Source: Escherichia coli (GTDB lineage: Bacteria > Pseudomonadota > Gammaproteobacteria > Enterobacterales > Enterobacteriaceae). From it: a stretch of 64,000 nucleotides of DNA. How positions within the stretch are numbered: the stretch's first letter is position 1; each line of letters begins with the position of its first letter. The position numbers are program-made. Below are positions 59,301-62,300 of this stretch, piece by piece. The DNA is taken from NCBI RefSeq assembly GCF_017348835.2, contig NZ_CP071375.1; one strand, given 5' to 3'.

Positions 59301-62300
59301 CCAACCGGCGAGCACAACAGCCCGCGCTCAAAGAGCTTCTTTGATGGTGTGAAGAAGTTTTTTGACGACCTGACCCGCTAACCTCCCCAAAAGCCTGCCC
59401 GTGGGCAGGCCTGGGTAAAAATAGGGTGCGTTGAAGATATGCGAGCACCTGAAAAGTGGCGGGGAGCACTCCCCGCCGTTGCTCTTACTCGGATTCGTAA
59501 GCCGTGAAAACAGCAACCTCCGTCTGGCCAGTTCGGATGTGAACCTCACAGAGGTCTTTTCTCGTTACCAGCGCCGCCACTACGGCGGTGATACAGATGA
59601 CGATCAGGGCGACAATCATCGCCTTATGCTGCTTCATTGCTCTCTTCTCCTTGACCTTACGGTCAGTAAGAGGCACTCTACATGTGTTCTGCATATAGGG
59701 GGCCTCGGGTTGATAGTAAAATATCACTCGGGGCTTTTCTCTATCTGCCGTTCAGCTAATGCCTGAGACAGATAGCCTCAAGCACCCGCCGCTATTATAT
59801 CGCTCTCTTTAACCCATTCTGTTTTATCGATTCTAATCCGGAAGACGCCTCGCATTTTTATGGCGTAATTTTTTAATGATTTAATTATTTAACTTTAATT
59901 TATCTCTTTATCGCAATTATTGACGACAAGCTGGATTATTTTTGAAATATTGGCCTAACAAACATTACCGACTGACAACAAATTAATTATTACTTTTCCT
60001 AATTAATCCCTCAGAAATCCTCACCTTAAGCTATGATTATCAGGGCTTAGGGGCACCCGTCAGCGCTTACAGCCGTCAAAAACGCATCTCACCGCTGATG
60101 GCGCAAATCCTTCTATAGATCGTAAAAAACGAATTATTCCTACACTATAATCTGATTTTAACGATGATTCGTGCGGGGTAAAATAGTAAAAACGATCTAT
60201 TCACCTGAAAGAGAAATAAAAAGTGAAACATCTGCATCGATTCTTTAGCAGTGATGCCTCGGGAGGCATTATTCTTATCATTGCCGCTATCCTGGCGATG
60301 ATTATGGCCAACAGCGGCGCAACCAGTGGATGGTATCACGACTTTCTGGAGACGCCGGTTCAGCTCCGGGTTGGTTCACTCGAAATCAACAAAAACATGC
60401 TGTTATGGATAAATGACGCGCTGATGGCAGTATTTTTCCTGTTAGTCGGTCTGGAAGTTAAACGTGAACTGATGCAAGGATCGCTAGCCAGCTTACGCCA
60501 GGCCGCATTTCCAGTTATCGCCGCTATTGGTGGGATGATTGTTCCGGCATTACTCTATCTGGCCTTTAACTATGCCGATCCGATTACCCGCGAAGGGTGG
60601 GCGATCCCGGCGGCTACTGACATTGCCTTTGCACTTGGTGTGCTGGCGCTGTTGGGAAGTCGTGTTCCGTTAGCACTGAAGATCTTTTTGATGGCTCTGG
60701 CTATTATCGACGATCTTGGGGCCATCATTATCATCGCATTGTTCTACACTAATGACTTATCGATGGCCTCTCTTGGCGTCGCGGCTGTAGCAATTGCGGT
60801 ACTCGCGGTATTGAATCTGTGTGGTGTACGCCGCACGGGCGTCTATATTCTGGTTGGCGTAGTGTTGTGGACTGCAGTGTTGAAATCGGGGGTTCACGCA
60901 ACCCTGGCGGGGGTAATTGTCGGCTTCTTTATTCCTTTGAAAGAGAAGCATGGGCGTTCTCCAGCGAAGCGACTGGAGCATGTGTTGCACCCGTGGGTGG
61001 CGTATCTGATTTTACCACTGTTTGCATTTGCTAATGCTGGCGTTTCACTGCAAGGCGTCACGCTGGATGGCTTGACCTCCATTCTGCCATTGGGGATCAT
61101 CGCTGGCTTGCTGATTGGCAAACCGCTGGGGATTAGTCTGTTCTGCTGGTTGGCGCTGCGTTTGAAACTGGCGCATCTGCCTGAGGGAACGACTTATCAG
61201 CAAATTATGGCTGTGGGGATCCTGTGCGGTATCGGTTTTACTATGTCTATCTTTATTGCCAGCCTGGCCTTTGGTAGCGTAGATCCAGAGCTGATTAACT
61301 GGGCGAAACTCGGTATCCTGGTCGGTTCTATCTCTTCGGCGGTAATTGGATACAGCTGGTTACGCGTCCGTTTGCGTCCATCAGTTTGACAGGACGGTTT
61401 ACCGGGGAGCCATAAACGGCTCCCTTTTCATTGTTATCAGGGAGAGAAATGAGCATGTCTCATATCAATTACAACCACTTGTATTACTTCTGGCATGTTT
61501 ATAAAGAAGGTTCTGTGGTTGGCGCAGCGGAGGCGCTTTATTTAACACCACAAACCATTACCGGACAGATTCGGGCGCTGGAAGAGCGCCTGCAAGGCAA
61601 ATTATTTAAGCGCAAGGGACGTGGTCTCGAGCCCAGCGAGCTGGGGGAGCTGGTCTATCGCTATGCCGATAAAATGTTCACCTTGAGCCAGGAAATGCTG
61701 GATATCGTGAACTATCGCAAAGAATCCAATTTATTGTTTGACGTTGGCGTGGCTGATGCACTTTCCAAACGTCTGGTCAGTAGCGTGCTGAATGCTGCAG
61801 TAGTAGAAGGCGAGCCAATTCATCTTCGCTGCTTCGAATCCACCCACGAAATGCTGCTGGAGCAATTAAGCCAGCATAAACTGGATATGATCATTTCCGA
61901 CTGTCCGATAGATTCTACGCAGCAGGAAGGTCTGTTCTCCGTGAGAATTGGCGAATGTGGCGTGAGTTTCTGGTGTACAAATCCACCGCCGGAAAAACCG
62001 TTCCCAGCTTGTCTGGAAGAACGGCGGCTTTTGATTCCTGGGCGACGTTCAATGTTAGGGCGCAAATTGCTTAACTGGTTTAACTCCCAGGGATTAAACG
62101 TAGAAATCCTTGGCGAGTTTGATGATGCCGCGTTGATGAAAGCTTTTGGTGCGATGCACAATGCAATCTTCGTTGCCCCAACGCTTTATGCATATGACTT
62201 TTATGCCGATAAAACTGTCGTAGAAATTGGTCGCGTCGAGAATGTGATGGAAGAGTACCATGCTATTTTTGCTGAGCGGATGATTCAGCACCCGGCGGTA

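Follow-up and report, generated by a model that had tools for sequence, protein, structure and literature searches.

An uninterrupted hokC/mokC/sokC locus between dnaJ and nhaA of Escherichia coli and the recurrent insertion of IS186 into its 3' hairpin

The spacer between dnaJ and nhaA in a 64,000-nt stretch of Escherichia coli DNA (GCF_017348835.2, contig NZ_CP071375.1; hereafter the window, in whose positions all coordinates are given unless K-12 is named) carries the toxin gene hokC (gef) with its overlapping mokC frame on the minus strand and the antisense RNA gene sokC (sof) on the plus strand (Table 1). We consider it very probable that the chromosomal hokC/mokC/sokC locus, a type I toxin-antitoxin module of the hok/sok family, is seen here in its uninterrupted, ancestral state. 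There is little doubt about its identity and its architecture as a complete module of this family, and the chances that it is physiologically active appear to be roughly balanced. Over 49.9 kb the window shares 99.996% identity with E. coli F2_81, a strain in which RefSeq annotates hokC.

The hokC, mokC and sokC genes of K-12 MG1655 (b4412, b0018 and b4413) occupy the same position between dnaJ and nhaA. The K-12 spacer is 2,190 bp long (15299-17488) and holds, in addition to these genes, the insertion sequence (IS) IS186A (15387-16731), whereas the spacer of the window is only 841 bp long (59382-60222). Global alignment of the two resolved into a left block, window 59382-59461 against K-12 15299-15378 with one mismatch, and a right block, 59462-60222 against 16728-17488 with 21 mismatches, separated by a single gap of 1,349 bp that corresponds to IS186A together with the duplicated target GGGATCACTCCC. 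A preliminary description of this DNA had put the two spacers at about 840 bp and 2.2 kb and had ascribed the difference to one copy of IS186, and both the lengths and the explanation were borne out. The boundaries of the element could be mapped exactly: the K-12 junctions, GTGGCGGGGATCACTCC/CATAAGCGC on one side and GCGCTTATG/GGATCACTCCCCGCC on the other, represent IS186 with its 23-bp inverted repeats between copies of the duplicated GGGATCACTCC(C). This duplication corresponds to window positions 59462-59473, and the window holds a single unbroken target, GGCGGGGAGCACTCCCCGCC, at 59458-59477. Neither the IS186 terminal repeat (CATAAGCGCTAACTTAAGGGTTG) nor a transposase open reading frame (ORF) nor any other IS sequence was found in the dnaJ-nhaA spacer of the window, and the K-12 arrangement of inverted repeats, transposase and a 10-12 bp duplication between the hokC stop codon and the fold-back inhibition element (fbi) is absent from it. 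The AT-rich remainder of the spacer lies outside the hokC module and presumably has a regulatory role for nhaA.

Both protein frames are open, as had been described. The hokC coding sequence (CDS) is identical to that of K-12 at every nucleotide, and the mokC frame, which overlaps it in the same reading frame, differs from K-12 MokC by L2Q, the result of a T/A difference at 59690. The Shine-Dalgarno (SD) sequences and start codons of both frames are intact, the GAGG of mok lying 8 nt upstream of its ATG, and translation of hokC is presumably coupled to that of mok. HokC matched the Pfam family PF01848 (HOK_GEF) with 85.5 bits (cutoff 22; E = 1.8e-24), while the Rfam sok/hok leader model RF01794 was matched over its full length (model positions 1-157) by 59787-59635 on the minus strand with 119.8 bits (gathering threshold 59; E = 2.6e-28). 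On these profile scores the family identification is well past chance. The NCBIfam Hok models stayed below their cutoffs (46.8 against 73 for the Hok subfamily), so that the family was assigned from the Pfam and Rfam matches. At HokC Tyr47 (59499-59496) the UACG motif for editing by TadA is kept; in K-12 hokC mRNA this motif undergoes A-to-I editing at a level of about 9%, changing Tyr to Cys (PMC12214031).

The regulatory elements of the mRNA were placed by aligning the locus with K-12 hokC and with the R1-type hok/sok locus of an IncFII plasmid. All of those expected of a hok mRNA (tac, ucb, dcb and fbi) are present. The hokC promoter has no good -35 element (ACAGAA at 17 bp from the -10) and is therefore predicted to be weak, and transcription would begin at about 59787. 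At the other end, the GC-rich hairpin that lies directly behind dnaJ on the plus strand is followed on the minus strand by UUUU, and is therefore likely to be the terminator of the hokC transcript; its stem is unchanged in 10 E. coli strains. Between the hokC stop codon and fbi lies a further hairpin, referred to below as the 3' hairpin. In the alignment it falls opposite the R1 hairpin at nt 337-354, just beyond which the truncated R1 hok mRNA is reported to end (nt 361), and it would be the counterpart of the final stem-loop in hok mRNA that has been processed at its 3' end.

The 402-nt minus-strand RNA folded with a minimum free energy (MFE) of -169.2 kcal/mol (z = -6.0 against dinucleotide shuffles). 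In the full-length MFE fold nt 1-12 pair with nt 352-364, that is, tac with fbi, through 12 pairs and one bulged C (-18.5 kcal/mol by RNAduplex), and the mok SD pairs with ucb. For an RNA shortened to nt 1-337, which ends a little beyond the 3' hairpin in analogy to the R1 end at nt 361, the predicted partners were different, tac now pairing with nt 52-58 (ucb) and the mok SD with nt 115-118 (dcb). The folding thus predicts a rearrangement to tac-ucb and SD-dcb pairing upon 3' truncation, and the same conformational switch has been described for R1 hok (PMC9841398).

The tac-fbi helix covaries among 19 enterobacterial hok loci, which have GGGUGC/GCACCC in the hokC types, GGCGC/GCGCC in the R1 types and GGUGC/GCAC(U/C) in Erwinia and Pantoea. 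These loci came from a pattern scan in which each species was represented by a single genome; it returned 25 loci, of which 19 were genuine Enterobacterales hok loci; the other six or so (in Nitrospira, Streptomyces, Oscillibacter and others) were discarded as chance matches. In the loci with a recognisable 5' motif, the complement of the 5' end was found 41-67 nt past the motif that marks the end of the CDS (52-67 nt with the single exception of Erwinia_a, at about +73), the fbi arm being taken for two gapped duplexes. Pair counts made on the MFE structure in 14 hokC-type sequences, with no shuffle control, gave 96% of cells paired, 13 double changes and 55 broken cells, the latter mostly from the two most distant and poorly aligned homologues, and lend the predicted structure weak support.

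On the opposite strand, sokC is complementary to the translation-initiation region of mok. Its promoter stretch is identical to that of K-12 throughout, and the 59-nt RNA carries three substitutions relative to K-12 (59690, 59700 and 59715). The predicted fold of SokC (-23.6 kcal/mol) consists of a single-stranded 5' tail, a hairpin and a U-run. The position, the putative promoter and a terminator-like fold are all in place. No disrupting change was found in the sokC promoter or in the translation signals of mok and hok, which were the places where the preliminary description had considered that its reading might fail.

Table 1. Genes and sequence elements of the dnaJ-nhaA region; nt, position in the hokC mRNA
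Feature	Position	Strand	Sequence, basis or remark
dnaK	56246-58162	plus	
dnaJ	end at 59381	plus	
GC-rich terminal hairpin	59410-59393	directly 3' of dnaJ stop	GCCUGCCC-N2-GGGCAGGC; inverted repeat; terminal hairpin of MFE fold
fbi (fold-back inhibition)	59436-59424	minus	CUUCAACGCACCC; nt 352-364; pairs with nt 1-12
3' hairpin	59477-59458	minus	GGCGGGGAGUGCUCCCCGCC; nt 311-330; inverted repeat; IS186 target GGGG-N6-CCCC
hokC CDS (50-aa membrane toxin)	59637-59485 (stop 59487-59485)	minus	ORF; Pfam; nucleotide-identical to K-12
mokC frame (69 aa)	59694-59485 (ATG 59694-59692)	minus	overlaps hokC in same frame; equals K-12 mokC 16751-16960
hokC SD region	59652-59644	minus	AAGGAGAAG; nt 136-144; unchanged in window, K-12 and R1-type hok
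dcb	59673-59670	minus	CCUC; nt 115-118; pairs with mok SD in MFE fold of nt 1-337
mok SD	59706-59703	minus	GAGG; nt 82-85; same in hokC and R1 hok; pairs with ucb (full-length fold) or dcb (3'-cut fold)
ucb / anti-SD	59736-59730	minus	AGCCCCG; nt 52-58; pairs with mok SD (full-length fold) or tac (3'-cut fold)
tac, 5' end of hokC mRNA	59787-59776	minus	GGGUGCUUGAGG; Rfam RF01794 start at 59787; aligns with R1 hok mRNA 5' end
hokC promoter -10	59799-59794	minus	TATAAT; identical to K-12; aligns with R1 hok -10 TATGAT
sokC promoter	-35 59651-59656; -10 59674-59679	plus	TTGACC, 17-bp spacer, CACTCT; read from sequence and K-12 sokC 5' end
sokC antisense RNA (59 nt)	59686-59744	plus	complementary to mok translation-initiation region; K-12 sokC 16952-17010, offset 42,734
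Rest of spacer	59830-60222	plus	AT-rich; upstream of nhaA, outside hokC module; 14 of 22 substitutions relative to K-12
nhaA	60223-61389	plus	
nhaR	after nhaA	plus	

If these elements act as their R1 counterparts do, the weak hokC promoter would give rise to a minus-strand mRNA of about 370-400 nt in which tac is paired with fbi and the mok SD is held by ucb, and since both would be sequestered, the full-length mRNA would be neither translated nor bound by SokC. Slow trimming from the 3' end back to the 3' hairpin would then take off fbi, allowing tac to pair with ucb and the mok SD with dcb. The processed mRNA would have two fates: it could be bound by SokC and destroyed, or mok could be translated, resulting by translational coupling in the synthesis of the HokC membrane toxin.

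IS186 prefers targets of the form GGGG-N6-CCCC, and the 3' hairpin fits this pattern. In K-12 the element has landed in this hairpin, which is thereby broken, and has cut the hokC coding region off from fbi and the terminator. The toxicity of R1 hok is abolished when mutations weaken the last stem-loop, an effect that the authors attributed to greater susceptibility to 3'-to-5' exoribonucleases (PMC9841398). The hok loci of K-12 are considered to be inactivated by IS elements (PMC3562002, PMC12214031).

The IS-free state proved to be the common one and not an exception. Among 5,426 complete E. coli genomes, a query of 140 nt with the target at its centre was matched from end to end in 3,814 (70%), in which the site is hence uninterrupted, and the site was interrupted in 1,611. 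Among the matches listed for interrupted genomes, the alignment ended at query position 82, which is the end of the duplicated target, in all but one, and that one lay at an assembly edge. A count based instead on coverage of at least 80% of the 841-bp spacer (3,847 genomes) was rejected as a measure of the IS-free state, since the part lying on the right of the IS already makes up 90% of that query; the shortfall in this coverage comes from strains in which another segment stands upstream of hokC. The K-12-type IS186 junction occurred in no more than 821 genomes, derivatives of K-12 and B among them, and the junction of the opposite orientation in no more than 940, the latter being verified in strain CP55_Sichuan, where the same target is duplicated. 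Since IS186 is found at hokC in both orientations, there must have been at least two independent insertions. The two junction counts, both of them upper bounds, together exceed the 1,611 interrupted genomes by 150. Junctions of plasmid hok genes with IS186 explain part of this excess, and the hokE::IS186B junction of K-12 was ruled out as a source as it covers only 67% of the query.

The IS-free arrangement is also the older one. The hokC gene adjoins dnaJ in E. albertii and lies between dnaJ and nhaA-nhaR in Escherichia sp. E1V33, and it is IS-free in both. Since hokC is next to dnaJ in all of these, its position predates the divergence of E. coli, E. albertii and E1V33, and since the locus is IS-free and syntenic in the latter two, the IS-free state is likely to be ancestral and the K-12 state derived. 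A record labelled E. coli SCPM-O-B-8794 also has an IS-free hokC between dnaJ and nhaA, with 95.1% identity to the window in dnaJ and 92.4% in nhaA; as this divergence is similar to that of E. albertii, the record probably represents another Escherichia species or a cryptic clade.

Sequence conservation was examined in ten E. coli genomes, comprising the window, F2_81 and eight strains spread over the range of megablast identities from 95.7% to 98.6%. In the hokC CDS one of 153 sites was variable (A22V) and there was no synonymous change, whereas the adjacent 3' end of dnaJ had 28 variable sites out of 440, of which 26 were third codon positions (P = 0.0036 by Fisher's exact test). The conservation of synonymous sites suggests a constraint on the RNA itself across the hokC coding region. 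The adjacent dnaJ varies at 19% of its codons. In other Escherichia species, hokC has only 0-2 synonymous changes. The stem of the 3' hairpin (GGCGGGG/CCCCGCC) is unchanged from E. coli to Citrobacter and its loop varies. On the other side of the gene, the sequence just upstream of the hokC promoter (59800-59981 and beyond) differs between strains, which places hokC at the edge of a variable segment. Strains 536, Ec55 and 1002W03 have 13 differences in 59800-59838, the region of the hokC -35, and in the B2 strains S88 and 536 a gene for an OmpK-like outer-membrane protein and a sulfatase gene stand beside hokC in place of nhaA.

The suggestion that this copy, being free of an IS, may be functional stands only in part. 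The complete architecture is in its favour, but the absence of an IS does not in itself establish function, as the IS-free hokC of strain ECOR24 illustrates: in the summary of Pedersen & Gerdes (1999, Mol Microbiol 32:1090) given in a 2026 preprint (10.1101/2025.08.07.668861), that locus showed neither post-segregational killing nor activation by rifampicin. To the extent of that summary, a complete architecture is no guarantee of activity, and by this precedent the activity of the window allele would be doubtful. Several features of our own analysis also weigh against the reading of the locus as such a module. The two promoters, of hokC and of sokC, and the relevant hairpins all went uncalled in a generic sigma-70 promoter and terminator scan; the -10 of sokC (CACTCT) and the -35 of hokC are poor matches to the consensus; and the promoters were placed by homology, with the transcript ends transferred from K-12 and R1.

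The likeliest alternative, to which we would give a substantial but less than even chance, is that the locus looks complete and is nevertheless physiologically inert, too little HokC being released owing to an excess of SokC, a weak promoter or inefficient processing, in which case IS186 would have little phenotypic effect. Besides the summarised ECOR24 result and the lack of a -35 in the hokC promoter, the tolerance of IS186 in about 30% of genomes and the undecayed CDS of K-12 speak for it. It is less easily reconciled with the strong nucleotide-level conservation that both the CDS and the hairpin stem show in the phylogroups of E. coli, in other Escherichia species and in Citrobacter, which is hard to fit to a neutral relic. 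Furthermore, HokC is toxic when overexpressed (10.1101/2025.08.07.668861), and R1 hok, present as one copy in the chromosome and driven by its own promoter, kills in the absence of Sok (PMC9841398), both of which argue against a dead relic.

The converse extension, that IS-free hokC is an active and selectively maintained toxin module whose mRNA-protecting 3' hairpin serves as a recurrent landing pad for IS186, by which the module is disarmed, seems to us unlikely to hold in full. If true, it would mean that E. coli populations are polymorphic for an armed and a disarmed toxin, and that the near-absence of synonymous variation reflects selection at the RNA level for the folding pathway.

It is quite improbable that the sequence has instead been kept for a role other than that of a toxin-antitoxin module, whether as terminator of dnaJ, as insulator between dnaKJ and nhaAR or, through SokC, as an anti-addiction decoy against plasmid hok. 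The terminal hairpin does lie directly behind dnaJ, the locus is at the edge of a strain-variable segment, and the anti-addiction idea has been raised (10.1101/2025.08.07.668861). However, conservation peaks in the HokC coding region and not in the flank that holds the dnaJ terminator, where 9 of 76 positions are variable. There are also substantial differences between SokC and R1 Sok where the target is recognised, in the target region, and the chromosomal Sok RNAs gave no protection against R1 hok in K-12 (PMC9841398).

That the IS-free state is secondary, a K-12-like ancestor having lost IS186 by precise excision, is hardly credible. Although gain and loss are conceivable at a hot spot that has received IS186 in both orientations, the target hairpin is present once, in perfect form, and bears no footprint, and all lineages sampled, among them B2 and D strains, E. 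albertii and a cryptic clade, have IS-free alleles. The hairpin loop, moreover, is GUGC in the window against GUGA in the K-12 duplication, so that simple excision of IS186 from the K-12 allele does not yield the window allele.

We therefore return to the uninterrupted ancestral module as the reading of this locus. As far as the citing papers relate, the locus, its disruption by IS186 in K-12, the IS-free alleles of natural isolates and the regulatory elements are already known, having been described in 1999, and RefSeq already annotates hokC in thousands of genomes. What is added here is modest: the site is intact in 70% of genomes, the insertions occur in both orientations, and the same hairpin is interrupted in three hok loci. 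The results carry the caution that K-12 represents a derived state at hokC. The intact and the IS186-split alleles also form a natural pair for asking whether chromosomal hok loci do anything.

Other features of the window were recorded in passing. Between yjjV and yjjW (13726-14139) there is a tandem array of 4.1 copies of a 101-bp unit with 94% matches, the copies of which match the Rfam family naRNA4 (REP325-type nucleoid-associated RNA). The dnaK-dnaJ intergenic region holds a match to the Rfam sRNA tpke11 (58173-58250; 69.6 bits). According to the F2_81 annotation, a small gene cluster between ettA and nadR (about 27260-31116) encodes a LysR regulator, an aldo/keto reductase, a short-chain dehydrogenase/reductase (SDR) oxidoreductase, an SRPBCC protein, a YdgH/BhsA-family protein and a truncated oxidoreductase. 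Just past nhaR, on the minus strand (62393-63076), lies an ORF of 227 aa where the F2_81 annotation has a frameshifted fimbrial-family pseudogene.

Of the known systems, the closest is the K-12 locus itself, which shares with the window an identical hokC CDS and sokC promoter and is 97% identical in the non-IS DNA of the spacer. Six substitutions fall in the mRNA region, among them the three within sokC, of which the one at 59690 is behind MokC L2Q. The K-12 locus is set apart by IS186A, which with its duplication adds 1,349 bp within the 3' hairpin and takes fbi and the terminator off the transcript, whereas the window has no IS. Two further hok genes have been interrupted in the equivalent hairpin just past the stop codon. 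In hokE::IS186B of K-12 (608007) the element sits in a GGGG-N6-CCCC hairpin, and a hokC-like gene on the plasmid pPSS-08-2_2 (2250-3590 of the record examined) is likewise split by IS186. Both are hok paralogues other than the one in the window, which is intact, and they illustrate the kind of insertion to which its hairpin is vulnerable. The IS-free hokC of ECOR24, described by the papers that cite it as having its own antisense sokC and fbi, would by that description be the same kind of locus as that of the window (PMC3562002, 10.1101/2025.08.07.668861). The R1 hok/sok (parB) system, finally, is plasmid-borne and the window locus chromosomal, a position at which a role in plasmid stabilisation is not possible; the window leader is about 18 nt shorter, and its toxin is clearly diverged, with 50 residues against 52. 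The two nevertheless agree in how their elements follow one another (tac, ucb, mok SD, dcb, hok SD, toxin ORF, 3' hairpin and fbi), belong to the same Pfam family, keep the UACG Tyr codon near the C-terminus and share the same predicted switch between the full-length and truncated folds, and where their tac and fbi sequences differ, the changes are compensatory.

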